Positions 361-47,002 of a DNA stretch of 64,000 bases are shown one piece after another; positions within the stretch are counted from its first letter, which is position 1, and each line of letters begins with the position of its first letter. The translations under genes and the position numbers were made by a program. The DNA is taken from IMG/VR virus record IMGVR_UViG_3300045988_141072, positions 1-64,000 of that record, one strand, 5' to 3'. Source of the stretch: a virus. The notes under the pieces are model-generated. The model saw only the letters and a program-made list of their open reading frames with translations, did not search any database and was not told the origin of the DNA.

Positions 361-391
361 AGCGGAATTTCTTGTGTTGAAAGGAGATAAT

Positions 392-1114
392 ATGTATCCA
401 GAATACGATGATTTTTATGAGCCAAGTGAAGGCGAAATGTTTTTTGATGAAATGAAAGAAAAGTTCAGAGAAATTTTACGTGAAGATATAAATTCTGAAA
501 TCAGCAGATTAACAAAAGAGAATGTAGAATTAAGACAAAAGGTTAAAGAGTACAATGATAAAAATTTAAATCTTTCTTGTAGAGAAAGAGATTTACAGTA
601 CAAGATAGACAATTACAAGCGAGAGGTAGAGAAAGACTTTTACAATAAAACAATGGAAGAAGTTTTTGAGAAACTTTTAGAAGACTCAGAAGTGTGGTAT
701 GCAGAACGTGTTCCTCATGAGAAACCAAAATGTAATTTATGTAACAAGGAAAGAAAACTTGTTGCAGTATATCCAGATGGTGAAACTGTGACCAAGGAGT
801 GTAAATGTTCTCGCCCAACATATATTTATGAGCCAGTAATTTCATTGAATAAAGAGATTAAATTTCATAAAGCATATAAACCAAGGTACAGTGATAAAAA
901 GAAAGTCTATTTTACTAAAAATCACGAGCCAAATAAGGATTATGCAGATGCGTATGATTATTACAGTGAATTCAGAATAGAGAATATTTTTGATGATTTT
1001 AATGATGATGTAATTGCATATCACAATGGTAAAAGATATGGAGAAAAAATTGCATTCAGGAGCAAAGAGGCTTGTCAGAAATATTGTGATTGGCTTAATA
1101 AGGAATCAAATTAA
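392..1114 (+). CDS. hypothetical protein (coiled-coil N-terminal half, CxxC..CxC cluster)
   Basis: ORF track 335-1114. The in-frame ATG at 392 follows AAGGAGA by about 5 nt; the upstream part of the ORF overlaps the dyad cassette. Confidence 0.7.
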   Translation: MYPEYDDFYEPSEGEMFFDEMKEKFREILREDINSEISRLTKENVELRQKVKEYNDKNLNLSCRERDLQYKIDNYKREVEKDFYNKTMEEVFEKLLEDSEVWYAERVPHEKPKCNLCNKERKLVAVYPDGETVTKECKCSRPTYIYEPVISLNKEIKFHKAYKPRYSDKKKVYFTKNHEPNKDYADAYDYYSEFRIENIFDDFNDDVIAYHNGKRYGEKIAFRSKEACQKYCDWLNKESN

Positions 1115-1142
1115 ACATAGATTTCCTTCGGGATGAAAAGAG

Positions 1143-1472
1143 GTGAAGTTTTTGAAAATCGTACAGAATAAATCACATTATGATTTTAGAATAAAAATCG
1201 GAAATAACCATGTAACTGTTGCAACGCTTCATCCGTGGTTATTCAGTAAACATAATCATAAATACAGTCTGTATTTTTATTATTATGGAGCTGAATATGA
1301 AGAAGGAACGTATGCTTGTTGTCATAGAAATGGAAATGAAAAGATGATGGTATATGAACAAGAAAATGAACTTCATGAAGAATTTCTTGAAAGAGTGAGA
1401 AGAATAGTTTCAAAGAAACTGTATGTCATAGGAAGTTCAATCTTGGAAGAAATAAAATATATTGAGAATTAA
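1143..1472 (+). CDS. hypothetical protein
   Basis: ORF track. The start is GTG 1143 or TTG 1152, directly after AAGAGGTG. Confidence 0.6.
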   Translation: MKFLKIVQNKSHYDFRIKIGNNHVTVATLHPWLFSKHNHKYSLYFYYYGAEYEEGTYACCHRNGNEKMMVYEQENELHEEFLERVRRIVSKKLYVIGSSILEEIKYIEN

Positions 1473-1500
1473 AAATATAATTCAATAGGAGGTGCAGCCT

Positions 1501-2130
1501 ATGGGGAATATTCAGATAAATGATAAAGTGATAATAAAAAGTTCCTGTAATAGTAGGGGACAAACTGGATTTGTTATAGACACATATAATGTAGGTACAC
1601 AGAAATATGTTATGGTTCAATTAAAGGATAGAAAACAAGGATATAACGTTTTGTCAGTAGAAAAAGTTGAAAGTGAGGATAATAAAATGACAGGATTTAG
1701 TAAAGTGGCGATTGTAAATTTGGTAGATGATTACAATAAAAAGGATTATGGATTTGCTTTATACGATGAAGATATCAATGAAATTGTTAAGTATGATACC
1801 AATCATCCATTATATCTGATTGTAAATGCAAGAGGAAAAGATAATAGAGTTCTTGGAATTTTAAAAGAAATTAAGACAGTCGAAGAATATGGTAAAGGTG
1901 TGACAGCTCAGGTTGTTGGTGTCGTTAATATGAACGCATATAATGCAAGAATTGATGAGGAAAATCATCAGAAAGAAATTGCAAAGCAGAAAGCTTCTAT
2001 TGAGAAGGAATTAAAGTCTGAGATTGAAAAGATGAATAATATTGCTTTATATGAAAAGATGGCAAAGGAGCATCCTGAGAATCCAAGACTCGCTGAACTT
2101 GTTAATGCACTGAAAGAGTTAGGAGAATAA
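1501..2130 (+). CDS. hypothetical protein
   Basis: ORF track 1492-2130. ATG 1501 lies 8 nt after GGAGG. Ends GGAGAATAA, which serves as the SD for the next gene. Confidence 0.7.
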   Translation: MGNIQINDKVIIKSSCNSRGQTGFVIDTYNVGTQKYVMVQLKDRKQGYNVLSVEKVESEDNKMTGFSKVAIVNLVDDYNKKDYGFALYDEDINEIVKYDTNHPLYLIVNARGKDNRVLGILKEIKTVEEYGKGVTAQVVGVVNMNAYNARIDEENHQKEIAKQKASIEKELKSEIEKMNNIALYEKMAKEHPENPRLAELVNALKELGE

Positions 2131-2131
2131 T

Positions 2132-2392
2132 ATGGCAGGATTTGTATCAAAACAACCAAACGGATTATATTGTAGATTTTCGAGTGTCACGGATTGTCCT
2201 ACGGCATGGAACATGACACGAGAAGATTATATCAATATGAAAATGCAGGAAGCAAAAGAAGACGCTGAAGATGTGTTGGATAATTATTTAAAGCCGTTTG
2301 ATATGGTGATGGATATGTATTATCCAAACAATATGACAAAAGAGGAATTTGATAAATTCCTTGAAGAGACTGGATATAGCAAAGGAGAATAA
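2132..2392 (+). CDS. hypothetical protein
   Basis: ORF track. The ATG is 1 nt after the upstream stop; the SD is embedded in the upstream GGAGAATAA. Confidence 0.7.
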   Translation: MAGFVSKQPNGLYCRFSSVTDCPTAWNMTREDYINMKMQEAKEDAEDVLDNYLKPFDMVMDMYYPNNMTKEEFDKFLEETGYSKGE

Positions 2393-2397
2393 GCCAT

Positions 2398-2547
2398 ATG
2401 AAGAACTGTGTAATTTTAGAAATGGAAAATTGCAATGATTTTGAAAATGCAATGAATGATTATTTAGATGATGGATACAAAGTAGAATCCAGTTCATGCA
2501 ATAGTAGATACTATAAAGCAATTCTTGTGTTGAAGGAGGAGGAATAA
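2398..2547 (+). CDS. small hypothetical protein (49 aa)
   Basis: Hand-translated MKNCVILEMENCNDFENAMNDYLDDGYKVESSSCNSRYYKAILVLKEEE*. The ATG is 5 nt after GGAGAATAA; the ORF fills an otherwise empty gap and ends in GGAGGAGGAATAA just before the next ATG. Confidence 0.45.
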   Translation: MKNCVILEMENCNDFENAMNDYLDDGYKVESSSCNSRYYKAILVLKEEE

Positions 2548-2552
2548 ACCAT

Positions 2553-3471: not shown

Positions 3472-3527
3472 TCATAAACAAAAGTAAACCGAAGTTTCCT
3501 TCGGACGATAAGAAAGAGAGGTAAAAT

Positions 3528-3935
3528 ATGGATATTTGTTTAACAGTATTAATTGGATTAATGGGAATTTGTATAGGAGCACTTATTGGGCTTGGGATTT
3601 CTTTTAAGATCAATCATAATTACATACTTGGAATGAACGATATTACTAAAGAATATTTAGGAAAAGTAATTGATTTAGAAAAAGGATATTTCAATACAAT
3701 TGCGACAGATTTAGCAAAAGCAGTAGATGACATTAACAAAGTATATGAAAAGCCAATTTGGAGAAAGACAGAAGAAGAATTGCCACCATGTTCAGGATTA
3801 TATTATGGCAAAATTAAAGGTAATCCACATGGAGAAAATGCTATGTGGAAAGTGATATATAACGACAATGAATGGAGTTTATCTGGTTATCATGATAATA
3901 AAGTAGAAATTAGTGAATGGACAGAGATCTATTAA
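3528..3935 (+). CDS. membrane-anchored hypothetical protein, C-terminal DUF551-like region
   Basis: N-terminal hydrophobic helix (LTVLIGLMGICIGALIGLGI). The C-terminal W..ELPP..W..W..W pattern resembles small phage DUF551 proteins. Confidence 0.6.
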   Translation: MDICLTVLIGLMGICIGALIGLGISFKINHNYILGMNDITKEYLGKVIDLEKGYFNTIATDLAKAVDDINKVYEKPIWRKTEEELPPCSGLYYGKIKGNPHGENAMWKVIYNDNEWSLSGYHDNKVEISEWTEIY

Positions 3936-3978
3936 GACAATAATACATTGAAAGAAATCTTTCGTTCGGAGGTAATAC

Positions 3979-4435: not shown

Positions 4436-4492
4436 GAACCAATTAAAGCGATATTTCTTCAGATTGTAATAAGTGAACAGGAGGATAATTTA

Positions 4493-4921: not shown

Positions 4922-4990
4922 GACCAATGAAATTTTGGTTTCTTGGCTTGTTACGAAACTAAGTAACAATGTAGACACAATAAAGAGCAT

Positions 4991-5564: not shown

Positions 5565-5655
5565 TAGAGAATAATAAAAAGTAATCTCTGAAATACCTTA
5601 AAATCAAGGCTTTCAGAGGTTGAAAAAGCCAAGGAAAACCACGTTTCTTTCGAGG
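5565..5655 (+). repeat. Conserved intergenic element, copy A (TAGAGAATAA + hairpin + AAAAAGCC + dyad)
   Basis: TAGAGAATAA at 5565-5574. Hairpin CTCTGAAATACCTT/AAGGCTTTCAGAG at 5586-5618. The block TTTCAGAGGTTGAAAAAGCCAAGGAAAACCACGTTTCTT is about 80 percent identical by eye to 37931-37970. Confidence 0.6.
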
Positions 5656-7578: not shown

Positions 7579-7857
7579 ATGGCTTGGAGTTATGAAAATT
7601 TAAAATCTGCAACAGATAAGGAAACAGCCGATAAAATATGGCGCAATTATTTAGATGGAACAGATGAATTATGCACCATTTTTAGAACAATTGTTAGTTT
7701 ATCAAATGATGATACCAATTCAAAAATTGAAAAATTAATGGAAAGGCTATCTGAGACTAAGAAACCAGAAAAAGTTATGTCTGATGATGATAGAGATATG
7801 ATTGAGGAGTTCCTTGAATATCTACAACATAAAAATGAAAATAAAGATTCTGAGTAA
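7579..7857 (+). CDS. hypothetical protein
   Basis: ORF track. Confidence 0.6.
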   Translation: MAWSYENLKSATDKETADKIWRNYLDGTDELCTIFRTIVSLSNDDTNSKIEKLMERLSETKKPEKVMSDDDRDMIEEFLEYLQHKNENKDSE

Positions 7858-7931
7858 AGAAGCATTTCCTTGGAGTTTTGAACGATAAAAAGAGAATAAA
7901 TACATAGAAAATAGAAAGAGAGGTACTGAAA

Positions 7932-9251
7932 ATGTATTGTGCTTATATCACAACATTAAAAGGATTAAGAAAACATAGCAACGCTGATAGATTACAGTGT
8001 GTAGAAGTATTTGGACAGAATGTAATTGTAGATTTGAGTTATCAGGAAGGACAGAAAGTAATTTTCTTCCCATCTGACGGTCAGTTATCACTTGAATATG
8101 CGACAGATAATAACCTTGTCAGAAAGAAAGACGAGAATGGAAACAACATTGGTGGTTATATGGATGCTGAGAAGAGAAATGTGACTGCTATTAGACTTAG
8201 AGGTGAAAAGTCAGAAGGTCTTGTATTACCAATTGAGACACTTGCTAAGTATACAGATATTTCAAAATTAAAAGATGGCGATCAGATTACAGTTCTTGGT
8301 GGTCATGAGATTTGTCAGAAATATATCCCAAGAGGAAAAAATCGTTCAAGAAGTAATGGGAATGGTGCAAATAAAAAGAATAAGTTTCAGAAAGAAACTG
8401 TATCATATCCATTTTTCGAGGAGCATAAAGATACTGCACAGCTTGCGTATAATATGTCAGCATTTAAGCCAGGAGATACGATTTATATTACTCGTAAGCT
8501 TCACGGAACATCTGCTCGTACCATGAAAACAGTTAAGATTACAAAGAAGAATAGTAAGCTGAGAAAGTTTTTACATATGCAGCAAAAGGTTACAAGAGAA
8601 GTTTCTGTTGTATCTGGTAGCAGAAGAGTCGTATTAAAGGATATGACAAAGAACGATGGATATTATTCTGATAATGGATTCAGAAAAAAATATCATGATT
8701 TATTAAAAGACAAGCTTCCTGAAGGTGCTGAGATTTTCTATGAAATTGTTGGCTATGTAAATGAAACAACACCAATTATGGGTTCAGTATCTAATAAGGG
8801 AGTTAAGGAAAAAGAATTTACAAAGAAATTTGGCGACACCACAACATTCTCATATGATTGTGAGCCAGGTGAAAATGAGATGTATGTATATCGAATGACA
8901 ATGACAACAGCAGATGGAACAGTTGTTGAAGTACCTTGGGAGACTGTAGAAGTATGGTGTGACAAGTTAGGTGTTAAACATGTACCTGATTTAGAGAAGT
9001 TTATTTTTACTACACCAGAAGATTTGAAAGAAAGAGTAAATAAATATCTTGATGGTATGCCAGCAGATGAAATCGGCAAGACACATGTTGCCGAAGGTGT
9101 AGTTGTTCGTATTGATAACAGAGCAACATTCACGGCTTATAAGGATAAGGTGTTTGAATTTAAGGTAATTGAGGGAATCGCCAAAGATACATCTGATGTA
9201 CCTGATATGGAAGAAGCTGAAGAGTTGTTTGAGGAGACTTTAAATGAGTAA
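7932..9251 (+). CDS. ATP-dependent RNA ligase, DraRnl/Rnl5-like (N-terminal OB-type module plus nucleotidyltransferase domain)
   Basis: Motif I lysine in ITRKLHGTS (compare the KxHGT of Rnl2-type ligases); EIFYEIVGY (motif III-like); HVAEGVVVR (motif IV); AYKDKVFEFK (motif V). The N-terminus (..LRKHSNADRLQCVEVFGQNVIV..) resembles a tRNA-binding OB module. Confidence 0.8.
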   Translation: MYCAYITTLKGLRKHSNADRLQCVEVFGQNVIVDLSYQEGQKVIFFPSDGQLSLEYATDNNLVRKKDENGNNIGGYMDAEKRNVTAIRLRGEKSEGLVLPIETLAKYTDISKLKDGDQITVLGGHEICQKYIPRGKNRSRSNGNGANKKNKFQKETVSYPFFEEHKDTAQLAYNMSAFKPGDTIYITRKLHGTSARTMKTVKITKKNSKLRKFLHMQQKVTREVSVVSGSRRVVLKDMTKNDGYYSDNGFRKKYHDLLKDKLPEGAEIFYEIVGYVNETTPIMGSVSNKGVKEKEFTKKFGDTTTFSYDCEPGENEMYVYRMTMTTADGTVVEVPWETVEVWCDKLGVKHVPDLEKFIFTTPEDLKERVNKYLDGMPADEIGKTHVAEGVVVRIDNRATFTAYKDKVFEFKVIEGIAKDTSDVPDMEEAEELFEETLNE

Positions 9252-10134
9252 ACCTACATTGTATATCATGTGTGGTCTGTCTGGCAGTGGTAAATCAACC
9301 ATTGCCACTCAGATTGCCAATGAAAATCCAAATACAGTAATTGTATCATCGGATGCGATTCGTGAAGAATTGACAGGTAATTACGAAGACCAACAACATA
9401 ATGAAGAAGTGTTTAAGATTTTTCATGATAGAATCCGTAAGAATTTAGAGAATAAAAAGAATGTAATTGCAGATGCAACTAATCTGACTATGAAATCTCG
9501 CAGAGCAATTATGATGAAAGTAAATGGTTTAAATGTCAGGAAAGTATGTGTAATTATTCCAAAGCCATTTGAACAGTGCAAAAAAGATAATTTACATAGA
9601 GAACATCCTGTATCTGACTTTGTGTTGGATAAGCAGATTAGAAAATTCCAGATTCCGTTCTATGAGGAAAATTTCGATGCCATTAAAATTTATGATCTAC
9701 ATAAAAAACATAAATTATCTGTGCCAGAAATGATACAACAGATGGATAATTTTGATCAACAAAATCCTCATCATACAATGACGCTGGATAAACATTGTAG
9801 AAATACATATGAGTTATTTTGTAAGAAGAATTATCCATTAGAATTTAACATAGCTGCAATATTGCATGATTATGGGAAACTGTTTTGTAAAACAACGGAT
9901 GAAAATTGCATAGCACATTTTTACGATCATAATTCAATTGGTTCATATTTGGTATTGGAAAACTTAGTTGGCGAATATAAGTATGGTCTTTTAGATATTT
10001 GTTTCCTTATTAATTACCATATGATGCCTTTTAGTTGGGATACTGATAAAGCAAAACAGCGTTGGAAAGAAAGATTCGGAGAATATAAATATAAGATGCT
10101 TTTAGATTTTAACGAATGTGATAGAGCGAGGTAA
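9244..10134 (+). CDS. bifunctional end-healing enzyme: N-terminal P-loop polynucleotide kinase plus C-terminal HD phosphohydrolase
   Basis: Walker A is CGLSGSGKST. HD-domain signatures are AAILHDYGK and FYDHNSIG. Overlaps the ligase gene by 8 nt. Confidence 0.8.
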   Translation: MSKPTLYIMCGLSGSGKSTIATQIANENPNTVIVSSDAIREELTGNYEDQQHNEEVFKIFHDRIRKNLENKKNVIADATNLTMKSRRAIMMKVNGLNVRKVCVIIPKPFEQCKKDNLHREHPVSDFVLDKQIRKFQIPFYEENFDAIKIYDLHKKHKLSVPEMIQQMDNFDQQNPHHTMTLDKHCRNTYELFCKKNYPLEFNIAAILHDYGKLFCKTTDENCIAHFYDHNSIGSYLVLENLVGEYKYGLLDICFLINYHMMPFSWDTDKAKQRWKERFGEYKYKMLLDFNECDRAR

Positions 10135-10315: not shown

Positions 10316-10401
10316 ATTTAAAAGTAAATTCAGGTTTCATTGGCTTTGAGTAACTTCACAAGAAGTAACATATCCTTGAATTATTGAAAAGAGGTGATTA
10401 A

Positions 10402-11327: not shown

Positions 11328-11612
11328 ATGAAGCCAGTAGTATATTTTGATTTTAAGGAATGTGAAAACGATAATAATAGTGTCGTGATTACGAAAGATA
11401 GGTTAAAAGAGATTTTAGATGAAGTGTATCAAGCAGGATATTCAGATGGAAATTTAAATAAAACTACCATTACAACAACTCCTTGGAATTGGAGAGACAA
11501 TGTTGTGTATTGTGGTGGCAATAATGACCAAATGATTCCTAGAGAAATAACGACAGGAACACCATTAAAAACTAATGGGACAGTTATTACATGTGAAAAT
11601 AAAAAGTCGTAG
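11328..11612 (+). CDS. hypothetical protein
   Basis: ORF track; the ATG is 2 nt after the upstream stop. Confidence 0.6.
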   Translation: MKPVVYFDFKECENDNNSVVITKDRLKEILDEVYQAGYSDGNLNKTTITTTPWNWRDNVVYCGGNNDQMIPREITTGTPLKTNGTVITCENKKS

Positions 11613-11717
11613 GAATCCAATCTTTCATTGGAAAATTTTTAATCATATCTAAGCCATTCGGCTATGGGAATCCCAGTAACAAGAAGAAATAGTATTGTTT
11701 GATAGTTAGGAGAAAAT

Positions 11718-12220: not shown

Positions 12221-13234
12221 ATGAACAATGAAAATAAGAATACTAATTCATTACGAAAAGCAAAAACACTTGATGAATTATTAAATACGTGTCCACGTAA
12301 TCAAATTATTGGTGATAATTTGGTTAGAGCATGGTCAAAAATTAATAGTGTAAAGTACAAGAAAATAGTTTGCTCGATTTCAGGTGGATCAGATAGTGAC
12401 GTGATGCTTGATATTGTATGGCGATGCGATAAAGATAATAAAGTTGATTATGTTTGGTTTGATACAGGTCTTGAATATCAAGCGACCAAGGATCATCTAA
12501 AATATTTGGAAAACAAATATAATATAAAGATAAAACCATATAAGGCAATTAAGCCTATTCCGTTATCATGTAAACAATATAGTCAACCGTTTATAAACAA
12601 ACAAGCTGCTGAATACATAGATAGACTTCAAAGACATGGTTTTAAATGGGAAGATAAATCGTTTGATGAATTATATAAGGAATATCCTAAGTGTAAAGCT
12701 GCTTTGCTATGGTGGTGTAATTTAAAGAAATCGAATGCTTTTAATATTGCAAATAATAAATGGCTCAAAGAGTTTATTATTGAAAATCCACCAACATTTA
12801 AAATCTCATCAAAATGTTGTCAATATGCAAAAAAGGATGTTTCTCATAAATTGATAAAAGAAAATACATATGAATTAAATATAGTTGGTGTGCGAAGAGC
12901 AGAAGGTGGTGTTAGAGCCACATCCTATAAGTCTTGTTTTAGCGAAGGCGATGATGGATGCGATAATTATAGACCTCTATTTTGGTATAAAGATTCTGAC
13001 AAAATTGATTATGAAAACGTTTATAATGTTGAACATTCAGATTGCTATGTTGTTTATGCCTTGCCAAGAACAGGTTGCGCAGGTTGTCCATTTGGAAGAG
13101 ATTTTGAGAATGAACTTGAAGTTATTCAAAAATATGAACCAAAACTATATAAGGCTGTAAATAATATTTTTGGAGATTCTTACGAATATACAAGGAAGTA
13201 TCGTGAATTTGTAAAGAAAATGAATAAAAAGTAG
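12221..13234 (+). CDS. PP-loop ATP pyrophosphatase, PAPS-reductase-like (phage DndC/IbrA-type family)
   Basis: PP-loop is SISGGSDSDVM. The C-terminal LPRTGCAGCPFG is typical of phage PAPS-reductase-like proteins. Confidence 0.7.
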   Translation: MNNENKNTNSLRKAKTLDELLNTCPRNQIIGDNLVRAWSKINSVKYKKIVCSISGGSDSDVMLDIVWRCDKDNKVDYVWFDTGLEYQATKDHLKYLENKYNIKIKPYKAIKPIPLSCKQYSQPFINKQAAEYIDRLQRHGFKWEDKSFDELYKEYPKCKAALLWWCNLKKSNAFNIANNKWLKEFIIENPPTFKISSKCCQYAKKDVSHKLIKENTYELNIVGVRRAEGGVRATSYKSCFSEGDDGCDNYRPLFWYKDSDKIDYENVYNVEHSDCYVVYALPRTGCAGCPFGRDFENELEVIQKYEPKLYKAVNNIFGDSYEYTRKYREFVKKMNKK

Positions 13235-13292
13235 AGAATAACAAATTGAGAGGTTACGAAAGCCTTGAAAAATAAGGCTTTTAGAATCTCAA
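13232..13292 (+). repeat. Conserved intergenic element, copy B
   Basis: TAGAGAATAA at 13232-13241 (its TAG is the stop codon of the upstream gene). Nested hairpin: TTGAGA..AAAGCCTT / AAGGCTTT..TCTCAA at 13246-13292. Confidence 0.55.
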
Positions 13293-13326
13293 AATATAAA
13301 AATATTACATATAAAGGAGATTTTAA

Positions 13327-13878
13327 ATGAAGAACACGAATTGGAAAGTGCCAGTAATTATTGGCGTAGGAGTATTAGCAGTTATTTTGATGATTGTATT
13401 TGGTGTACAGAGTTCACAGAATAAGGCTATTGCACTTGAGGAGCAGGTAAATACAGCGTCATCAGATATTGAGGTACAGGAAAAGCGAAGAGTTGACCTT
13501 GTATATAACCTTGCTGATTGCGTAAAACAGTATGACAAACATGAAGCTGATACATTGACAGCAGTTGCAGATGGTCGTGGATCAACAGGAGATATTGAGA
13601 ATGTAACAACAGCTATTACAGCAGTTGCAGAAGCATATCCTGAGTTGAAGTCCAATGAGAACTATAAGACTCTTATGAATGAGTTATCCATGACAGAGAA
13701 TATGATTGCAGAATATCGCAGCAATTACAATAAGCAGATTAAGGAATATAAGAGATATGTGAGAAAGTTCCCTACAAGACAGTTCCTTGGATTGCTTGGA
13801 TATGAAGTACAGAAATATGAGTATCTGGATTACAACGCACCAGTTGATGCTCCACAGGATTTGTTTAAAGAGGATTAG
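13327..13878 (+). CDS. lemA: LemA family protein
   Basis: N-terminal TM helix followed by the characteristic LemA sequence (..ALEEQVNTASSDIEVQEKRRVDLVYNL..AEAYPELKSNENYKTLMNELSMTENMIAEYRSNYN..). Confidence 0.85.
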   Translation: MKNTNWKVPVIIGVGVLAVILMIVFGVQSSQNKAIALEEQVNTASSDIEVQEKRRVDLVYNLADCVKQYDKHEADTLTAVADGRGSTGDIENVTTAITAVAEAYPELKSNENYKTLMNELSMTENMIAEYRSNYNKQIKEYKRYVRKFPTRQFLGLLGYEVQKYEYLDYNAPVDAPQDLFKED

Positions 13879-13881
13879 TCT

Positions 13882-14634
13882 ATGAGATATGGTTTTGATT
13901 TTGGCGATTTTGAAATAACAAAACGTGAAATCTTGGCTAGTATTTCTATCATTGCAATTATGATTCTGTTTGGTATTCTGATTTCTTCAAAGATTTCAGA
14001 ACACCAAATGGATAAAAATGAAATTTATAACAAGGCTGTTAAGATAGAAAGTCAAGAAATGTTCCAATACGGAATGGACACAAATGTTGGTAATGCGTTT
14101 GTATATGGTGATTTAAAAGCGGTAGATACAGTTACTTATCCTGAAATTAGTGGAGAATATATGTATGTAGAAAAAGTCAAAGAGAGATATACAATGCATA
14201 CAAGACAAGTAGCTCATACAAGAACTGTTAATGGCAAATCACAAACTTATTATACAACAGAAACATATTGGACTTGGGATAAAGTTGGAAGTGAAGATAT
14301 TAAGTGTAAAGAAATATCGTTTTGTGGAGTAAATTTCACAAGTAATAAAATTGATTTGCCTGGTACTGATTATATTGACACAATTAAAGAGTCAAGTCAT
14401 GTGAGATATAAGTATTATGGTGTTGGCACTGAATATAAAGGAACAATTTTTGCAGATTTGAAAGATAAAACCATTTCTGATAACACATCATTTTATAATA
14501 ATTTGACTATTGACGAGACGATAGAAAGGCTAGAATCTGATTTTCCAATTATTATTTTCTGGATCTTTTGGGTTATTTTAATCGGTGGAATGGTATTTGG
14601 GTTCTATTATTTGGATAATAGATGGTTAGATTAG
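13882..14634 (+). CDS. two-TM membrane protein with large intervening domain
   Basis: Hydrophobic helices near the N-terminus (ILASISIIAIMILFGILISS) and the C-terminus (IIIFWIFWVILIGGMVFGFYYL). Starts 3 nt after lemA. Confidence 0.7.
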   Translation: MRYGFDFGDFEITKREILASISIIAIMILFGILISSKISEHQMDKNEIYNKAVKIESQEMFQYGMDTNVGNAFVYGDLKAVDTVTYPEISGEYMYVEKVKERYTMHTRQVAHTRTVNGKSQTYYTTETYWTWDKVGSEDIKCKEISFCGVNFTSNKIDLPGTDYIDTIKESSHVRYKYYGVGTEYKGTIFADLKDKTISDNTSFYNNLTIDETIERLESDFPIIIFWIFWVILIGGMVFGFYYLDNRWLD

Positions 14635-14675
14635 CAAGAAATTTTTCTTTCTTTTGGATAGGTTGGAGGTGTGAT

Positions 14676-14999
14676 ATGAGAACAGAGAATATAAAAGTAA
14701 CATTTAAAATTCCAATTCCAGTTGATAAGCCTGATTTGAACGGTGTGATATATTCCAAAGAAGCAATTAGAAATGCTTATAAAAATGTAAAGAATATTCC
14801 GATTGAGATACCATGTAGCGATGGTAAGTTTCTTCCTATTGGAGTAGCACAAGAAGTTGAATTGATTGAAGACGAAGATGGTATGTATGTCACAGGCGTT
14901 GGTCTTATTTGGCATGGTGGCACAGAAGAAAGCGTTGAAATTAAGGATGGTAAGGTAACTAGCTTTAAAGTGAATGGCATTGGAATTGCAAAAGAGTAG
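14676..14999 (+). CDS. hypothetical protein
   Basis: ORF track 14622-14999. ATG 14676 lies about 7 nt after GGAGGTG. Confidence 0.6.
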   Translation: MRTENIKVTFKIPIPVDKPDLNGVIYSKEAIRNAYKNVKNIPIEIPCSDGKFLPIGVAQEVELIEDEDGMYVTGVGLIWHGGTEESVEIKDGKVTSFKVNGIGIAKE

Positions 15000-15011
15000 G
15001 AGAATAAGTAT

Positions 15012-15299
15012 ATGGCGATAGGCGATGGAAGAAAAATATATTCAGATAGCACATTAAAATCTATGACAAAAGATAAACTGATTGATATTATTCGCTGCTT
15101 AGAAAGTAATCTTAGAAATGCTCATGAGACAAATGATATTCAATATGAGAACTGTAAGAGGTTACTGAGTGAAGAGAAGAATAAAACACTTGATGAAGTT
15201 CTAAAGGCTTGTGATATAGAATGTGGATTTTACAGTGGCGATGTTAAGAATCTTACAAGACACGTTTTGATGAGAGTATTAGATGGATTGAGAGAATAA
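15012..15299 (+). CDS. hypothetical protein
   Basis: ORF track; SD is TAGGAGAATAAG. Confidence 0.6.
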   Translation: MAIGDGRKIYSDSTLKSMTKDKLIDIIRCLESNLRNAHETNDIQYENCKRLLSEEKNKTLDEVLKACDIECGFYSGDVKNLTRHVLMRVLDGLRE

Positions 15300-15318
15300 A
15301 TATCTGTGAGGTGATGAA

Positions 15319-16215
15319 GTGAAATATATAGAACGAAAAGATTATAACAAGGTGATAACAGTTAAACTTGTGATTCCAGGTGGTTGTAATGCGAAATGTC
15401 CGTTTTGTTACAATAAAGACAAAGATATGTCATGTAACAAACAACAGTTTTTAGATAATTTCATTGAATCACTTGATGATATTATAACCAGAATAGGTGA
15501 TAAAAATCCTATATCAGTTGATATAACTGGTGGCGAACCAACTTTAGATCCTGAATATTTATCAAAAGTGTTTATCAAATTGAAAGAGTTCAATATTAAA
15601 TCAAAGGTTCTTAGAGTAACTATGACAACAAATGGTACTCATCTAAAGGAAGTAATACCGTATATGGAAGATGTTGTTGATTATGTAAATATTTCAATTC
15701 ACGATTGGCGACCATTAAGAAGAGAAGAAATACTTGGATTTTGTTTCAACGGAATTGATTATAAGGATATGGTTCAGCAGCTTAACGATATTAGAATTAC
15801 AGTATCCGCTTGTGCAGTCATATTTAAGAAAGTTCCAAACTTTATAAAGTGGAGAGACTTCTTTATTGATTGGGCGAAAGATGTAGGGTTTATTGCAGTA
15901 AGATTTAGATGCGATGTTTTCTGGAATGATTCTGATGTGTTTGATTACTATTTAACAGAGTCTATGAGTGAGACTGATAAATTTGATGTTATAGATTATG
16001 AAAACACAACGGATTCTCATTGGTGTAGACTTCGCAGAAAAGATAAAATGAGAGTATTTTTCCTACATGGTGTTTTAGACACCTCAATTAAGACAAAAGG
16101 TATTGAATATGTAATAGATACTGATGGTCACTGTTATTGTGATTATTACAGAAGGACAAAAGTAGAAGATTATCAATATGAAGTTGGAAAGATTTATGAT
16201 GCAGTGAGTGATTAA
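15319..16215 (+). CDS. radical SAM enzyme of unknown substrate
   Basis: CxxxCxxC in PGGCNAKCPFCYN. GGEP motif in DITGGEPTLDP. Extra C-terminal cysteines (HWCRL.., GHCYCDYY). GTG start lies after GAGGTGAT. Confidence 0.8.
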   Translation: MKYIERKDYNKVITVKLVIPGGCNAKCPFCYNKDKDMSCNKQQFLDNFIESLDDIITRIGDKNPISVDITGGEPTLDPEYLSKVFIKLKEFNIKSKVLRVTMTTNGTHLKEVIPYMEDVVDYVNISIHDWRPLRREEILGFCFNGIDYKDMVQQLNDIRITVSACAVIFKKVPNFIKWRDFFIDWAKDVGFIAVRFRCDVFWNDSDVFDYYLTESMSETDKFDVIDYENTTDSHWCRLRRKDKMRVFFLHGVLDTSIKTKGIEYVIDTDGHCYCDYYRRTKVEDYQYEVGKIYDAVSD

Positions 16216-16338
16216 ATAGAGAATAACTTAACAGGAATGATTCGTTTCTTTTGAAAATTATAACAGATAGGAGTGATATAAACGAGAGTATATAAAGATA
16301 AACAGTATCTTATTTTCGATTATGAAGATGGACGCACT

Positions 16339-19745: not shown

Positions 19746-19865
19746 AAGAGAGAATAATACAATAGGTAGTATATTTCATAAAAACACATACTATATATAG
19801 TGGTTAGGCAAATTAAAACTACTATATATAGCAACAAAATGGACAAGAAATATCGGTTTCCTTGG
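19746..19865 (+). promoter_or_regulatory. Intergenic regulatory cassette, copy 2
   Basis: AGAATAATACAATAGGTAGT at 19751-19770. Palindromic ACTATATATAGT at 19790-19801, with a second ACTATATATAG at 19821-19831. CAAGAAATATCGGTTTCCTTGG follows. Confidence 0.55.
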
Positions 19866-37897: not shown

Positions 37898-37975
37898 TTT
37901 GGATTTCTGGAATGCCCATAAATAGGGCGTTTCAGAGACTCAAAAAGCCAATGAAAGACGGATTTCTTATTAGTC
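37871..37975 (+). repeat. Conserved intergenic element, copy E
   Basis: ACAGAGAATAATACAGTAGA overlaps the end of the helicase ORF. Hairpin TCTGGAATGCCC/GGGCGTTTCAGA at 37906-37937. TTTCAGAGACTCAAAAAGCCAATGAAAGACGGATTTCTT parallels 5611-5650. Confidence 0.6.
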
Positions 37976-38007: not shown

Positions 38008-38625
38008 ATGAAAATGCTTGTGTTTTATCGGTCAAGAGAATATACAAATGCAATTATATCTTCAACAAGGTATAAATTGCAAAATATGGATATTGCAAAA
38101 GGTCTTGACGTTGATTTTATTAATTTAGATAAAAGAAACTACATTAAGGTATTGGCTCAAATGGAGGAATTGCCACGCTTTGTATATATTTGGTATGACA
38201 AAGAAAAGGTTACAGATTATATCAATGAGACATACCCATCAATAGAAGTCTTACATTTTGATGTGGAAAATTCAGTCGAAACACACAATAGTGGTTTTTA
38301 TGGATATACAACAAAAGAATATAAGTTAGCAGATTTAATGCTTCAGAAATTTAAGGATAGTCTTGTAAAGAAAACAATGTATCAGGTTGATTCTTTATAT
38401 AAAATTTCAAAAATGGACATGGATGATATGGATATAGCTTGTTCAAAATATCATTCATTTGAGACAAGGGAGGAAGCAAAGCAATATTGTATTGACTGTC
38501 TTAAAAAGGAAATTGATACATTAGAAAATAGAATTGATATGTACCAAAGCAATATTAAGTCTTGCAAAGCTGATTTGAAAAAGAAAAACACACTATTAAA
38601 GAAATACGATATTAAAGCAAATTAA
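38008..38625 (+). CDS. hypothetical protein
   Basis: ORF track; SD is AGGAGAGAATAAG. Confidence 0.65.
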   Translation: MKMLVFYRSREYTNAIISSTRYKLQNMDIAKGLDVDFINLDKRNYIKVLAQMEELPRFVYIWYDKEKVTDYINETYPSIEVLHFDVENSVETHNSGFYGYTTKEYKLADLMLQKFKDSLVKKTMYQVDSLYKISKMDMDDMDIACSKYHSFETREEAKQYCIDCLKKEIDTLENRIDMYQSNIKSCKADLKKKNTLLKKYDIKAN

Positions 38626-38659
38626 ACGACAGTTTCTTTGGAATATTTGGAGGTAAAAT

Positions 38660-39758: not shown

Positions 39759-39849
39759 AAATAAGGCGAAATTTGAGATGAAATTTCCAAGGAAATTGGA
39801 CTTTCATTGGGAGAATATTAATGTAAAGAAAGGATAAAAGTGAACAAAA

Positions 39850-40252: not shown

Positions 40253-41011
40253 ATGAAATTTGAAAATACAGAAGTGTTTAATTTCGAAGGTGCTTTTAGA
40301 GGTTTAAGAAATCCCAAGAATAGTTGGAATAGAAGTGATAGTAAATTTAGTGACTATTACGATTTATCAAGAGGAGATGTATCAGAGAAAGAACTAAAGA
40401 AAGTTTTCCAATTGGCTTATATTCATCATAGAACACCAGATGGATATTTTGTGGATATTATTGGTGAAAACGATATGAAACTTGCGCAGACTCTCATTAA
40501 AGCAGGAAATGAGCATAGAAAGTTCATGCGACAGATTTTCGTATCAGTAGATATCACAGCACCTCTTTATTTGTGGAAAGAATTTGATACATATAAGGTA
40601 GGGACGGTTGCGAACTCAACGAGTACCATGCACAAAATTACAAGTCAACCTATTACATTAGATTGTTTTGAAATTAAAGATTATGATAATTCGTTAGTAA
40701 CAACATTGGAAGATGGGAATTGCAAGTTTACATTTTCTTCTTCGGATGAACCACTTGCAATCATTGATTGGCTTGAATCACTTAGACAAAAATATATTAA
40801 AACAAAAGATAAAAGATATTGGAAAGAACTAATTCGATGGCTTCCTGAGAGCTGGTTACAGAAGCGTACAATTACAATGAATTATGAGAATGTTCGTAAT
40901 ATCTATTTTCAGCGTAGAAACCATAAGCTTACAGAGTGGTCAGAGTCGTTTATCAAGTGGGTAGAGTCACTTCCATATGCGAAAGAGTTGATTATGTATG
41001 ATGGTAAATAA
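40253..41011 (+). CDS. ThyX-family (flavin-dependent thymidylate synthase fold) protein with degenerate active-site motif
   Basis: Collinear by eye with ThyX: LIKAGNEHRKF versus LMKHGHETPFEH; VDITAPLYLWKEF versus HVKAPIFVARQWF; NYENVRNIYFQRRNHKLTEW versus [20 protein letters not shown]. The RHRxxSxxxxSxR signature reads TYKVGTVANSTST. Confidence 0.5.
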   Translation: MKFENTEVFNFEGAFRGLRNPKNSWNRSDSKFSDYYDLSRGDVSEKELKKVFQLAYIHHRTPDGYFVDIIGENDMKLAQTLIKAGNEHRKFMRQIFVSVDITAPLYLWKEFDTYKVGTVANSTSTMHKITSQPITLDCFEIKDYDNSLVTTLEDGNCKFTFSSSDEPLAIIDWLESLRQKYIKTKDKRYWKELIRWLPESWLQKRTITMNYENVRNIYFQRRNHKLTEWSESFIKWVESLPYAKELIMYDGK

Positions 41012-41029
41012 ATGTTCATTTCATAGGAG

Positions 41030-41254
41030 GTGATTAATATTAGAGATCCAAATAGATTATATAATTTTTATAACGAAGTAACCCGATTACACATGACATA
41101 CATGCCTGATTGGAGAGTTGGTCAGTTTTGGATGAACTTTTTAGGCTGGGTTCAAAATGTAAAGAAACGAGATCCGTTCTTCCCAGAAGAATCAGAAATG
41201 CTTACATATTTAAGAGAATTTTGTGGAGAGGAGAATAAAGAATACGGCAAATAA
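41030..41254 (+). CDS. hypothetical protein (start codon uncertain)
   Basis: ORF track. GTG 41030 overlaps the SD AGGAGG; ATT 41039 is at canonical spacing. Confidence 0.55.
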   Translation: MINIRDPNRLYNFYNEVTRLHMTYMPDWRVGQFWMNFLGWVQNVKKRDPFFPEESEMLTYLREFCGEENKEYGK

Positions 41255-42413
41255 ATTAATTGATTTAACAGGACAGAAGTTTGGAAAATTGACAGTTATT
41301 GGAAGATCAGAAGACAAAGTATTACCATCAGGGAGAAAAGTTGTTAATTGGAAATGTATATGTGATTGCCAAAGTGGACAAGAATCACCTAAATATACAT
41401 TTAAAACATGGGATTCATTAAAACGTAATCCGTCACCTTCATGTGGATGCGATACAAATGAAAAACATAGAAAATCAAGAATAAAAAATTTAAAAGGGAT
41501 GAAATTTGGTAAATTAACTGTTTTAGAACAAGCAGAAGATCAAATAAATGAAAATGGAAGACATTATATTATATGGAAATGTATATGCGATTGTCAATTA
41601 AATAATGAAAATCCCCAATATACATATGTTAGAGGTACGCATTTAACAAGTGGTGATGTTAAATCTTGTGGGTGTCTTGCAAAAGAACTTTCTTCAAAAA
41701 GGGAATGCATAGACATAATAGGAAACAAATATGGCATGTTAACGGTTGTTTCAAGAGGCGAAAATACAAAAACAGGTCAAACTCAATGGTGGTGTCAATG
41801 TGATTGTGGAAGCGATTTAAAATTAATTACAAAATCTAATTTAATTAGCGGTAATACATTTTCATGTGGTTGTTATAATCAAAGGAAAAGAAAAGATAAA
41901 AATAACACATATGATTTATCGGGTGAGTATGGTATTGGTTATACATCCAAAGGAGAAGAGTTCTATTTTGACTTAGAAGATTATGACAAAATAAAAGAAC
42001 GATATTGGTTTAAAACTAATAATGGTTATTTTGCAACAAAAAGTTATGGAATTCCTATTATGCTACATAGATTTATTTTAAATTTACCTTCTTTCCAATA
42101 TGATAATCCAGTAGATCACATCAATCATAATACATTTGATAATCGAAAAGTTAATTTGAGGATTACAAATAACTCTCAAAATAATATGAATAAAGGATTG
42201 GCATCTAATAATACAAGTGGTGTAAAAGGTGTTAATTTTGATAAAAATAAAAATCTTTGGATTGCACGTATTTCTGCATATAAAGTCAGGTATCATTTAG
42301 GTGGATTCGTTAATAAACAAGATGCAATTAGGGCAAGAAAAGAAGCGGAAGAAATTCTACACGGAGAATATTCATATGATAATTCAATCAAAAAAGGAGA
42401 ACTCAATGGATAA
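41223..42413 (+). CDS. HNH-AP2 homing endonuclease with three N-terminal Cys-rich repeats
   Basis: HNH is VDHINHNTFDNRKVNLRITNNSQNNMN. AP2 is SGVKGVNFDKNKNLWIARI..HLGGF. Three repeats of about 60 aa follow G.KFGKLTV...W.C.CDC....CGC. The start is uncertain and overlaps the upstream ORF. Confidence 0.8.
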   Translation: MERRIKNTANKLIDLTGQKFGKLTVIGRSEDKVLPSGRKVVNWKCICDCQSGQESPKYTFKTWDSLKRNPSPSCGCDTNEKHRKSRIKNLKGMKFGKLTVLEQAEDQINENGRHYIIWKCICDCQLNNENPQYTYVRGTHLTSGDVKSCGCLAKELSSKRECIDIIGNKYGMLTVVSRGENTKTGQTQWWCQCDCGSDLKLITKSNLISGNTFSCGCYNQRKRKDKNNTYDLSGEYGIGYTSKGEEFYFDLEDYDKIKERYWFKTNNGYFATKSYGIPIMLHRFILNLPSFQYDNPVDHINHNTFDNRKVNLRITNNSQNNMNKGLASNNTSGVKGVNFDKNKNLWIARISAYKVRYHLGGFVNKQDAIRARKEAEEILHGEYSYDNSIKKGELNG

Positions 42414-44609: not shown

Positions 44610-44613
44610 AAAT

Positions 44614-45426: not shown

Positions 45427-45438
45427 TGGAGAATATAT

Positions 45439-45624
45439 ATGAGTAGAACAAAAAAGAAAATTGAATTAGGTACAAAAGAATATCCTTATTGTTCTAATCG
45501 TGAATGTATGGATTTTGAGTGTTTAAGACACAGGAATTATATTCCTTGGAATATCTTATTATGGCAAGAGAAATACATTCCAAATAATAAGGGTGTTTGT
45601 AAAGATAAAATTAAAGAAATATAG
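45439..45624 (+). CDS. small Cys-rich protein
   Basis: ORF track; YPYCSNRECMDFECLRHRN motif. Confidence 0.55.
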   Translation: MSRTKKKIELGTKEYPYCSNRECMDFECLRHRNYIPWNILLWQEKYIPNNKGVCKDKIKEI

Positions 45625-45635
45625 TGGAGGTGCTT

Positions 45636-45740
45636 ATGGGAATAGCAACAGGAATAGGTTTATTCTTTTTAGGAATGATAATTGGTGTTTTAATGGTGTG
45701 TTTGTGTGTAGCTGCATCATCAAACGATGAAAGGGATTAG
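45636..45740 (+). CDS. small single-TM peptide (34 aa)
   Basis: Hand-translated MGIATGIGLFFLGMIIGVLMVCLCVAASSNDERD*. The ATG lies 6 nt after GGAGGTG. Confidence 0.45.
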   Translation: MGIATGIGLFFLGMIIGVLMVCLCVAASSNDERD

Positions 45741-45747
45741 GTGAAAC

Positions 45748-46356
45748 ATGATTATAATTGTGGGTAAATCAGGAAGTGGTAAGGATTCTGTTGTAAAAAA
45801 ATTAACCAATTTTTATGACTATAAAAAAATTGTAACTTGGACAACCAGACCAATGAGACCGAAGGAAATGCAGGATGTTACATATCATTTTACAGATGAA
45901 GAAACTTTTGAAGAAAAAATTGAGGAAGGTTTCTTTGCTGAATGGAAGAAATATGAATCAATTGAAGGAACTTGGTATTATGGTACAGCATTATTAGACC
46001 TTACCACATTTAATGAGGATAAGATAATAATTCTAACACCTGATGGTTATCGAGATATTAAGGATATCATAGGTAAAGATACATTAACCGTTTATTTAAA
46101 ATCCAAAAACAGAATCCTAAAATCCAGATTAAAAAAACGTGGCGACAATCCTAAAGAAATTAAAAGAAGATTAGGACATGACAAAAAAGATTTTAAGAGT
46201 ATTGAAAAAGAGGTTGATGTAGTCATAGAAAATAACAAACGTGATTTATGGGATATTGCAAAAATGATTGAAGAGATGGATGCAATTAGAAAGGAGAATG
46301 TGGTAAATGAAAGAATTTACGATATATCTAGCTGGTGCGATGGAAGGATTGAGTGA
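45748..46356 (+). CDS. guanylate kinase-like (d)NMP kinase
   Basis: P-loop is VGKSGSGKDS, followed by TWTTRPMRPKE..Y.F..EE.F...I..G.F.E, as in Gmk. Confidence 0.75.
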   Translation: MIIIVGKSGSGKDSVVKKLTNFYDYKKIVTWTTRPMRPKEMQDVTYHFTDEETFEEKIEEGFFAEWKKYESIEGTWYYGTALLDLTTFNEDKIIILTPDGYRDIKDIIGKDTLTVYLKSKNRILKSRLKKRGDNPKEIKRRLGHDKKDFKSIEKEVDVVIENNKRDLWDIAKMIEEMDAIRKENVVNERIYDISSWCDGRIE

Positions 46357-46729
46357 TGAAGAAATCAACGGTTGGAGAAGAACGCTGAACAAAATGTTTA
46401 AACATACATATTCAAATATGAAAGTTAATTGTATTAATCCTAATGATTACTACAATTTTAACGAAGTTGGTTATGACAGCCAGCGTGAAGTTATGGATTT
46501 TGATTTATATAAAGTCCGTCATAGCGATATGGTAATTGTTAATTTTTCGCATTGCTTTTCTAAAGGAACATTAGTCGAACAGGCAATTGCATTTGAAAAT
46601 AATATTCCGGTTATTGGATTGAATGAAAATCACAATAAACTTCATCCGTGGCAGATAGAACTAAGCAATAAAATATTTGATGATAAATTAAAACTTGTTT
46701 CCTATGTAACTAATTTTTATCTAAATTAA
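46307..46729 (+). CDS. nucleoside 2-deoxyribosyltransferase-like protein
   Basis: IYLAGAM N-terminus and GTLVEQAIAFENNIPVIGL (catalytic-Glu context). ATG after AAGGAGAA; overlaps the kinase ORF by 50 nt. Confidence 0.6.
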   Translation: MKEFTIYLAGAMEGLSDEEINGWRRTLNKMFKHTYSNMKVNCINPNDYYNFNEVGYDSQREVMDFDLYKVRHSDMVIVNFSHCFSKGTLVEQAIAFENNIPVIGLNENHNKLHPWQIELSNKIFDDKLKLVSYVTNFYLN

Positions 46730-46741
46730 GCGAGGTGGATT

Positions 46742-46909
46742 ATGTCAGATATAACAGCGTGCAGTAGTATTAATTGTCCCGAAAGAGATAATTGTTATAG
46801 AGCAACTGCAAAATCGTCTAAATGGCAGAGTTGGTCAAATTTTGAGTACACATGCAACGAAAATAATGGATTTGAAAATTTTATACCAAATTTAAAACAA
46901 ATACAATAA
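46742..46909 (+). CDS. small Cys-rich protein (55 aa)
   Basis: Hand-translated MSDITACSSINCPERDNCYRATAKSSKWQSWSNFEYTCNENNGFENFIPNLKQIQ*. SD is GAGGTGGA. Confidence 0.5.
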   Translation: MSDITACSSINCPERDNCYRATAKSSKWQSWSNFEYTCNENNGFENFIPNLKQIQ

Positions 46910-47002
46910 AATAAGTCAAGAAAATAACTCTAAAATTGATTTATTTTAATCAAAAAATCAAATGAAAGGTTGATTTCTTATGAAATCAGAAAAGGAGATA
47001 AA

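Follow-up and report, generated by a model that had tools for sequence, protein, structure and literature searches.

Intergenic dyads with junction-specific 6-bp centres in the early arm of a large gut phage: candidate address-tagged recombination sites

Introduction

What could be the function of a short inverted repeat that recurs between the early genes of a large phage? The question is raised by a 64,000-nt stretch of viral DNA (positions 1 to 64,000 of IMG/VR record IMGVR_UViG_3300045988_141072, hereafter the window), which contains 22 copies of an imperfect 24-bp palindrome, CCAAKGAAA-N6-TTTCNTTGG, that we call the dyad. An earlier note, made from the letters of the window alone, had listed 18 copies of its right half-site and had offered three readings: a promoter or activator site, an RNA processing or stability hairpin, and a translational operator. 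The comparison with related phages led us to a different one. The 6-nt centre of each copy belongs to its gene junction and is retained where the genes on one side of it have given way to unrelated genes, and we tentatively propose that the dyads are recombination sites whose centres serve as addresses. A dispersed operator is the nearest competitor, and the evidence that bears on both is weighed below.

A 24-bp dyad confined to early intergenic DNA

Aligned on their TTTC, the copies of the window give the consensus (C/A)nAAnKAAA-N6-TTTCnTkG, with an A-rich tract at positions -21 to -17 and no conservation further out. All 18 right half-sites of the earlier list were recovered, none displaced by more than 1 nt, and the recurrent motif is therefore real; four sites were added to them (TTTC starting at 368, 4454, 14648 and 41019), which makes 22. 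Matches to the pattern KAAWN6TTTCNTNK number 29 in the window, against 6.9 ± 2.6 in shuffled sequences (none of 100 shuffles reached 29), and the right arm TTTCNTTGG taken by itself is found 13 times, against 3.4 ± 1.7, with 11 of the 13 matches lying within dyads. The motif had been described as intergenic, and this held when intergenic and coding DNA were compared by weight matrix: all 22 + strand matches scoring at least 11.6 are intergenic, and the best + strand match in coding DNA, across a clear gap, scores 8.9. Indeed, the 22 sites are confined to the 3677 nt of intergenic DNA in the + strand early region of about 54 kb. No dyads were found in the - strand late genes (53868-64000) or in a further 10 kb of late genes, and the late-gene spacers carry ordinary intrinsic terminators instead. 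Our coverage of the genome, about 95 of 150 kb read in 20-kb pieces, gives at least 35 dyads per genome, in the early arm only.

The architecture is 9-6-9. Among 572 distinct sites (163 loci) the inner 4-6 bp of the two 9-bp arms are invariant and the outer bases are loose, and the spacer is 6 nt long in all intergenic copies. Its first base is seldom A (43 of 572) and its last base seldom T (5 of 572). Since the motif is nearly palindromic, a strand can be assigned only from the asymmetry of the arms. In the window the gene-proximal arm is nearly invariant, with TTTC in 22 of 22 sites, and the distal arm reads TAAA or GAAT in 10 of 22. At seven sites the left arm overlaps the upstream stop codon; it is degenerate in five of these, and in four of them its TAAA contains the stop. 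Matches in reverse orientation only are almost absent from the loci of relatives retrieved through the RNA ligase gene, and at some sites upstream of the recombinase gene discussed below the weaker arm is on the opposite side. The earlier statement that every copy is on the + strand is thus right in that the sites of this region are directional and oriented with the genes, but for a palindrome it holds only by virtue of the arm asymmetry. Similarly, the distance of 13-90 nt given for the gap to the start codon is close to the 10-86 nt that we measured for 18 sites, but does not extend to the sites at 4939 and 24007, with about 165 and 220 nt (those at 16245 and 41019 are not included in the count). 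Many dyads abut the Shine-Dalgarno sequence, at 10-30 nt from the start codon.

The centre of the dyad belongs to the junction

Like the note, we could not recognise the dyad as a described motif: a search of the window against Rfam gave no match, and neither INPHARED nor the GenBank phages contain a close relative of this phage. In IMG/VR, however, there are more than 120 contigs, about 150 kb in length, with a DnaE 82-99% identical to that of the window, and the conservation that the note had suggested looking for is found there, throughout the early arm of the phage family. More distant relatives have the form ATGAAA-N6-TTTCAT. The sites of the relatives were found with the weight matrix trained on the window.

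In these relatives the 6-nt centre, which we call the tag, is specific to each junction and stable while the neighbouring genes change. In 249 related loci we counted 1334 sites with 135 different tags. The centres are 49% G+C, against 31% for the genome (p = 1.5e-5). Their order is kept, with a single violation in 468 adjacent pairs (102 loci), and a tag is never repeated within one locus, which is expected by chance and is not evidence of avoidance. Consecutive tags lie from 33 to about 3800 nt apart, that is, they bound anything from emptied to multi-gene slots. The common tags are each found with 4-19 families of upstream flank and 4-17 of downstream flank, families here being defined by a threshold of shared 8-mers that may split diverged homologues, and 22 of 48 tags show two upstream and two downstream families in each of their four possible pairings. 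These comparisons show that related phages exchange gene blocks at the dyads, the neighbours being replaced by unrelated genes.

What becomes of the tag when one flank is exchanged? Among pairs of distinct site contexts with homology in the upstream flank alone, 1477 have the same tag and 179 different tags; among those with homology in the downstream flank alone, 1129 have the same tag and 95 different ones. In other words, 89-92% of single-flank replacements retain the tag, in pair counts that are phylogenetically non-independent. When neither flank is homologous, 5501 pairs still share a tag, against a chance expectation of about 97, and 257336 do not. Raw site counts agree with these figures. 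Both fractions of shared tags exceed one half, which would be impossible if the recombining partners had brought unrelated centres, and the partners must therefore share the tag. Where both flanks are homologous, the apparent excess of spacer conservation is confounded by mosaic pairs, and was not used as evidence of selection.

The limits of the exchanged blocks are sharp. The outer bases of each arm go with the flank on their side: in pairs with a replaced upstream flank the left arm is at background identity throughout, and in pairs with a replaced downstream flank so are positions +4 to +8. The mosaic breakpoints thus fall at the edges of the spacer. As a control, gene junctions without a dyad are concordant in 88% of cases and discordant in 1.8%, compared with 40% discordant at dyads. 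An emptied slot can be seen in one related locus (L094, 4090-4150), where the dyads tagged ccgaag and gaaatc are only 9 nt apart: the slot has lost the gene that occupies it in the window (3528-3935), and both junction sites are intact. In the ccgaag group, the inner left arm GTAAA moves together with the tag. Finally, three loci with DnaE 83-93% identical to that of the window (L026, L036 and L042) have no dyads within 10 kb of DnaE, and their downstream gene order is different.

Candidate recombinases

Which enzyme could act on such sites? Through the relatives we located a 326-aa Xer-like tyrosine recombinase gene on the + strand, inside the dyad array and about 13-15 kb before window position 1, with dyads on both sides of it. 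It is present in 133 stretches of the IMG/VR contigs of the family, to be compared with 122 for DnaE and 144 for the RNA ligase, and the contigs that bear it include those that yielded the DnaE and RNA ligase loci and one whose DnaE is 99% identical to that of the window. Its best PDB matches are XerA, XerH, XerD and XerC, and its NCBIfam matches XerC, XerS, XerA and XerD. All these scores are well below the equivalog cut-offs, and for this reason we do not regard the phage protein as an orthologue of any of them. The catalytic R, K, HxxR, H and Y are all present (motifs RGTGIRESEL, GKG, HMMRH and LGH…NNY). Genes for Xre-type helix-turn-helix (HTH) proteins adjoin it.

Two other candidates were rejected. 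The window itself encodes only an arm-type integrase; its attP core coincides with the 3′ end of a host gene and is unlike the dyad, and no paralogue of it was found among the loci searched for one. The host XerCD pair was set aside, as the Firmicutes dif (…ATAA-N6-TTAT…; PMC5357621) differs from the dyad.

Recombination site or operator

We propose that the dyads are address-tagged recombination sites delimiting exchangeable cassettes of the early arm, each being one double-stranded DNA site read by two protomers, and we give this reading a probability of about 0.42. The 9-bp inverted arms, with their invariant inner KAAA and TTTC and loose outer bases, would be the protein-binding elements, and the 6-bp centre would be the exchange (overlap) region, arbitrary in sequence and specific for each junction. 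The match between tags would restrict recombination to the allelic junctions of co-resident genomes, whether two phages or a phage and a prophage, and everything to the left or to the right of a junction could then be swapped with gene order preserved. The likeliest enzyme would be the family's own 326-aa Xer-like recombinase, and the system would resemble dif/pdif modules, but would be phage-encoded and collinear, with sites oriented by the direction of the genes. This reading is ranked first because the arms follow their flanks, the centre is shared, and exchange is allelic only and collinear. Two parts of it we infer: that the dyads are bound and cut by this recombinase, and that the exchange is a site-specific one and does not depend on short homology. 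Extended to the whole family, the proposal would be that these temperate gut phages of about 150 kb carry a dedicated exchange platform, with at least 35 ordered dif-like sites, 6-bp addresses and a phage Xer-like recombinase, a claim that we hold slightly more tentatively still.

Several observations weigh against it. Xer-like genes are common in large temperate elements, where they serve for multimer resolution, and the presence of one is by itself weak evidence. Comparisons of this kind cannot separate site-specific exchange from crossovers in the identical 13-14 nt of the centre (KAAA, tag and TTTC), and the GTAAA that travels with the tag in the ccgaag group fits a patch of homology better than a fixed point of cleavage. 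The phage also encodes, by weak matches, an SSB-like protein (24898-25977, + strand) and an AAA_24/Sak4-like protein (26066-27229, + strand). The dyads have, furthermore, the traits of expression signals: they are found in the early arm only, just upstream of ribosome-binding sites and in the orientation of the genes, and two come right after sigma-A-like promoters. For T4-type phages, shuffling by way of regulatory cassettes has been described (PMC2839356).

These points lead to the alternative that the dyad is an operator, or a "stoperator"-like roadblock, for a dimeric phage regulator that silences or times the early arm, exchange being a by-product. The regulator could be one of the Xre-type HTH proteins beside the recombinase, or the recombinase-fold protein itself, acting like MrpR/SroF in SPbeta, and the exchange could result from short-homology recombination, with the Sak4-like and SSB-like proteins, together with selection for intact gene units. 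A palindromic 5-N6-5 core is typical of HTH dimers, and the placement of the sites (22 in this window, no fewer than 35 in a genome), in the short intergenic spaces of the early arm only and oriented with transcription, is what such operators would show. Two of the sites are at about +2 to +25 of sigma-A-like promoters, the phage is temperate, HTH genes flank the recombinase, and there are precedents in the L5 stoperators (PMC9283540), in SPBRE bound by MrpR/SroF (PMC10516654, bioRxiv 10.1101/2025.11.27.690993) and in the shuffling mediated by PeSLs (PMC2839356). However, from an operator one would not predict centres of arbitrary sequence that each junction conserves even as contact-free positions of the arms vary, nor breakpoints within the central 14 nt between unrelated flanks, nor their sharpness and frequency. 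For homologous recombination, an identity of 13-14 nt is a poor substrate. At most sites there is no recognisable promoter that could be controlled, and the core is conserved in relatives with RNA ligases 81-99% identical, which would be unusual for immunity operators. Measured against what characterizes the dispersed repressor sites of L5 (stoperators), P1 (C1 operators) and SPbeta (SPBRE), the dyads do have many transcription-oriented intergenic copies in a temperate phage; measured against core sites of the dif/pdif type, they have the inverted arms, of about 9-13 bp in that class, around a non-conserved centre of fixed length, of 6-8 bp. We consider the operator a possible but less probable explanation, ranked close behind because the prior for multi-site recombination systems in phages is low.

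Promoter and RNA-level readings

A sigma-A promoter directly upstream of each dyad was rejected for want of enrichment: in the search for the best sigma-A-like promoter with its end 8-28 nt upstream, dyads did no better than random positions (p = 0.13). The promoter or activator site put forward in the note is a possible reading, but it gained no support here. A generic scan of the early arm for promoters and terminators gave results at or below the level of shuffled sequence and is uninformative. A sigma-H-like reading (AGGAAAT-N12-RnnGAAT) fits only two or three sites, and positions +9 to +13 are not conserved. A class II activator site would have no space for a -10 element before the start codon where dyads abut the Shine-Dalgarno sequence; because only 10-30 nt are left there, no downstream -10 is possible at such dyads. 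The two-fold symmetry points to a DNA-binding protein of two protomers rather than to a polymerase.

One version deserves a closer look, a compact promoter of about 25-30 bp for a phage RNA polymerase, a sigma factor or a sigma-appropriating factor, with initiation near the TTGG end and short leaders. With the upstream A tract the motif is about 30 bp long and holds about 20 bits; its orientation is fixed, it is 10-40 nt before most start codons with purines after the right arm, some dyads follow hairpins, and in the early arm one can detect few promoters of the sigma-A type and few terminators. Such a promoter would not be expected to show two-fold symmetry with symmetric exclusions at the spacer ends, however, and the arm spacing is incompatible with a -35/-10 geometry. 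Furthermore, dyads remain in tandem where a slot has been emptied, some sites upstream of the recombinase have the arm asymmetry reversed, the roughly 95 kb of the genome that were covered revealed no phage RNA polymerase, and the sole sigma-like domain, in a 723-aa protein, is not conserved in the family. We therefore regard a compact promoter as unlikely. That 723-aa protein was considered as the cognate sigma factor and rejected, being present in only four IMG/VR contigs, at 39-63% identity. It is an early protein (L080, 1933-4104, in a near-identical genome, about 6-8 kb upstream of window position 1) with a Sigma70_r2 domain at its N-terminus (32 bits) and a precomputed match to GmrSD_N, and the neighbours of its gene are a divergent HTH_3 gene and one for a PemK/MazF-like toxin.

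The dyads at 353-376 and 19842-19865 are nevertheless preceded by promoter-like regions, which are paralogous and about 90 bp long (252-350 and 19746-19845). These contain TTGCAA-16-TATAAA (317-344 in the first) and tandem palindromes resembling NrdR boxes. The palindromes are AT-rich, of the ATACWATATATWGTAT type, and come in pairs (295-306 with 327-338, and 19790-19801 with 19821-19832) whose centres are 31-32 bp apart and which flank or overlap the sigma-A-like promoter; they match the NrdR-box consensus at 14 of 16 positions. This suggests that early promoters of the phage are under the control of the host NrdR. In the relatives the module is followed by different tags, and L026, one of the loci devoid of dyads near DnaE, retains the palindrome pair.

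The last reading places the dyad in the mRNA, as a hairpin that would be a processing or stability element or a translational operator beside the ribosome-binding site; inverted repeats on the coding strand adjoin Shine-Dalgarno sequences, and a few copies fold well (-7.6 kcal/mol for 3477-3506 and -7.5 kcal/mol for 39784-39813), but we find it highly improbable in view of what follows. Covariation is absent among the 572 distinct sites, where the counts of Watson-Crick, G-U and A-C combinations equal the product of the column frequencies at nine of nine arm pairs, and G-U is not favoured over A-C beyond expectation. At position -10, T is found in 32% of sites with a partner that is C in 98%, that is, a U-C mismatch four pairs from the loop in one third of sites. 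Folding of 20 sites, a prediction that the note had suggested, gave 0 to -7.6 kcal/mol, with 17 of the 20 within the range of their shuffles (z-scores between -1.3 and +1, mostly no lower than -0.6), and Rfam, as said, recognises none. The copy that folds best does so in a different register: the "perfect hairpin" singled out at 3489-3504 is a coincidence that makes use of the spacer, the sequence in register being TAAA-ccgaag-TTTC. The hairpin and translational operator of the note are consequently abandoned, and the dyad is a DNA-level and not an RNA-level element. We also discarded the right arm as an anti-Shine-Dalgarno sequence, as it has a single invariant C and pairs poorly at sites of the TTTCATTGG type.

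Comparison with known systems

The closest parallel is with the pdif/dif modules of Acinetobacter, in which many sites per replicon have inverted arms around a 6-bp spacer, one arm being better conserved, and G+C-rich spacers that differ between sites, and in which the sites delimit accessory gene modules (PMC13141974). These sites recombine, and modules are replaced, when the 6-bp spacers are identical (PMC13141974). The pdif arms, however, are 11 bp long and of another sequence (…ATAA-N6-TTAT…), neighbouring sites alternate in orientation, and the modules are on small plasmids and use the host XerC/XerD pair, whereas we deal here with a 150-kb temperate phage, sites that are all oriented with the genes, a single collinear series of tags and a phage-encoded candidate enzyme.

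The single-recombinase systems XerH/difH and XerS/difSL are near in another respect, since XerH and XerS are among the best matches of the phage recombinase. The site difH is AGTTATGAAAA-N6-TTTTCAAACT; specific recognition is limited to the inner 5 bp of the arms, the centre is uncontacted, and the asymmetry of the arms orders binding and cleavage (PMC5357621, PMC5241119). Its inner arms, ATGAAAA-N6-TTTTCA, are similar to the ATGAAA-N6-TTTCAT of the distant phage relatives. These systems nevertheless have one chromosomal site, located beside the recombinase gene, for the resolution of chromosome dimers under FtsK control, compared with at least 35 sites with different centres in the phage.

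Among dispersed regulatory sites, the stoperators of Cluster A mycobacteriophages (L5 gp71) share with the dyads their number (more than 20 copies), their location in short intergenic spaces and early promoters, their orientation with transcription and the temperate host phage (PMC9283540). They differ from them in being 13-bp asymmetric sites bound by a monomer, with no variable centre, and the literature that we read describes neither junction tags nor exchange at them. SPBRE of the Bacillus phage SPbeta is likewise found in a large temperate phage of Firmicutes, as about ten dispersed sites of 15-26 bp read by a protein of tyrosine-recombinase fold; but MrpR/SroF has lost the catalytic residues and acts as a monomer at promoters, whereas the phage enzyme has its residues complete and the dyads are, as their name says, dyads and mostly promoterless. 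The PeSLs of T4-type phages are repeated intergenic elements in regions of accessory early genes and are sites of modular shuffling (PMC2839356, PMC4122927). They consist of a sigma-70-like promoter and a terminator stem-loop, recombine homologously between any two copies, possibly with formation of mini-circles, and have no address-like centre. When we looked for such a cassette at the dyads, we found no -35/-10 geometry in or beside them, no stable stem-loop and no T tract.

Integron attC sites, which have been reported in phage genomes (PMC9892861), also form arrays of cassette boundaries on which a tyrosine recombinase acts. They are longer, being extended imperfect palindromes with extrahelical bases and R''/L'' boxes that are conserved in structure and not in sequence; they recombine as folded single strands and travel each with its cassette, which is inserted at one attI and not into a fixed allelic slot. 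Compared by description, the 24-bp size and sequence-conserved arms of the dyad do not look like attC.

Mosaicism is usually attributed to random illegitimate recombination with selection, or to relaxed homologous recombination. Here the exchanged blocks end, give or take a few bases, at a DNA site of the protein-bound type whose anatomy is that of a target for tyrosine recombinases. If the dyads are recombination sites, co-resident relatives would swap accessory early genes slot by slot with gene order undisturbed, and this would be a site-specific route to a mosaicism whose mechanisms are mostly unknown (PMC3945230), as well as an instance of the "special sites between modules" of the modular theory of phage evolution. 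If the Xer-like enzyme of the phage acts on them, it would constitute a programmed, addressable exchange system in a virus, and would provide dozens of natural orthogonal recombination sites for one enzyme, of possible use in genome engineering. Even if the dyads prove to be operators, the tags would still be an unusually clean natural record of where phages recombine. The prophage resides in a cultured strain, Eubacterium segne BX4, and the question can thus be addressed directly.

The sites of the window

All 22 dyads are given here on the + strand. The first (353-376; CGAAAGAAA gcggaa TTTCTTGTG) is 8 nt downstream of the sigma-A-like promoter with NrdR-like boxes. At the second (1107-1130, tag cataga), the TAAA of the left arm holds the stop codon of gene 392-1114. 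The next two bound the slot that is emptied in L094: the tag ccgaag (3480-3503) is the one that by accident produced the "perfect hairpin", and at gaaatc (3945-3968) the right arm abuts the Shine-Dalgarno sequence. They are followed by gcgata (4439-4462), an added and weaker site with a score of 13.8, and by ttttgg (4924-4947). The tag accacg (5629-5652) is kept in orthologues with at least seven different upstream contexts. For gaagca (7850-7873) there are 16 upstream and 4 downstream flank families and all four combinations of two with two occur, and for ttcagg (10320-10343) there are 9 and 9.

The left arm of the dyad tagged ccaatc (11608-11631) overlaps a TAG stop codon. After tttttc (14633-14656), which is another added site, and gattcg (16230-16253), the tag tatcgg (19842-19865) comes after the second promoter-like region with NrdR-like boxes. 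The series continues with tttcga (20576-20599), ctgaca (21294-21317), cttgcg (23992-24015) and tcactg (24194-24217). The dyad-free spacer 24636-24897 (262 nt) then precedes the SSB-like gene and a 13-kb replication block without any dyads; within the spacer there are several inverted repeats and what may be a sigma-A promoter, and Rfam gives nothing there.

The array resumes after a conserved RecD-like gene with gacgga (37948-37971), for which we count 1 upstream and 17 downstream families. At cgacag (38618-38641) the left arm contains the stop codon TAA, and ttggac (39787-39810; CCAAGGAAA ttggac TTTCATTGG) is the most symmetrical copy. The dyad tagged tgttca (41004-41027), an added and weak site with a score of 11.6, also contains a stop codon in its left arm; directly after it comes an HNH endonuclease gene (41223-42413) that overlaps the start region of the NAD ligase gene. 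The last, ggttga (46959-46982), is upstream of a small open reading frame and nrdD.

Three spacer segments (5585-5628, 37905-37947 and 24040-24065) are paralogous, of the form …AATCAAGG(C)TTTCAGAG…AAAAAG, and would form hairpins without a T tract. Such segments directly precede the dyads at 5629 and 37948 and follow the one at 23992.

The phage and other features of the window

The window is the end of a 154-kb ENA contig. Its G+C content is 31%, and about 80 densely packed + strand genes extend to 53821, followed by structural genes on the - strand. Among its genes are those for a DnaE-type polymerase, a RecD-like helicase, RecJ, a DnaB-like helicase and primase, the NAD ligase, an RNA ligase and a polynucleotide kinase, methyltransferases, an intein-containing NrdD, dUTPase, an HTH_17 (Xis-like) protein and a tyrosine integrase. 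The integrase is 97% identical to one in E. segne BX4, where homology to the phage begins at window position 52054, within a block of about 80 nt (52054-52135) identical to the 3′ end of a host gene. The phage, a gut phage of about 150 kb that occurs as a prophage in E. segne, is accordingly temperate, and its attP is in the spacer 51825-52268. This attP region also contains four CTCGTCCACAT-like repeats, probably integrase sites of the arm type. When about 70 proteins were scanned against Pfam and PHROGs, the sole DNA-binding regulator found within the window was the HTH_17 (Xis-like) protein encoded at 51603-51824.

The heptamer GAGAATA has 68 copies on the + strand of the window against 3 on the - strand. 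Most of them form the standard gene junction GGAGAATAA-N3-5-ATG, in which the Shine-Dalgarno sequence overlaps the upstream stop codon, and about 15 copies of (T)AGAGAATAA are found in spacers with no start codon after them. The NrdD gene (47124-50393) is split by an intein, at about residues 430-760, with a LAGLIDADG homing-endonuclease domain. Lastly, the regions 7932-10134 and 12221-16215, taken together, contain the RNA-repair pair of RNA ligase and polynucleotide kinase, and a cluster of PAPS-reductase-like, radical-SAM and unknown proteins that may be a pathway of DNA or nucleotide modification.

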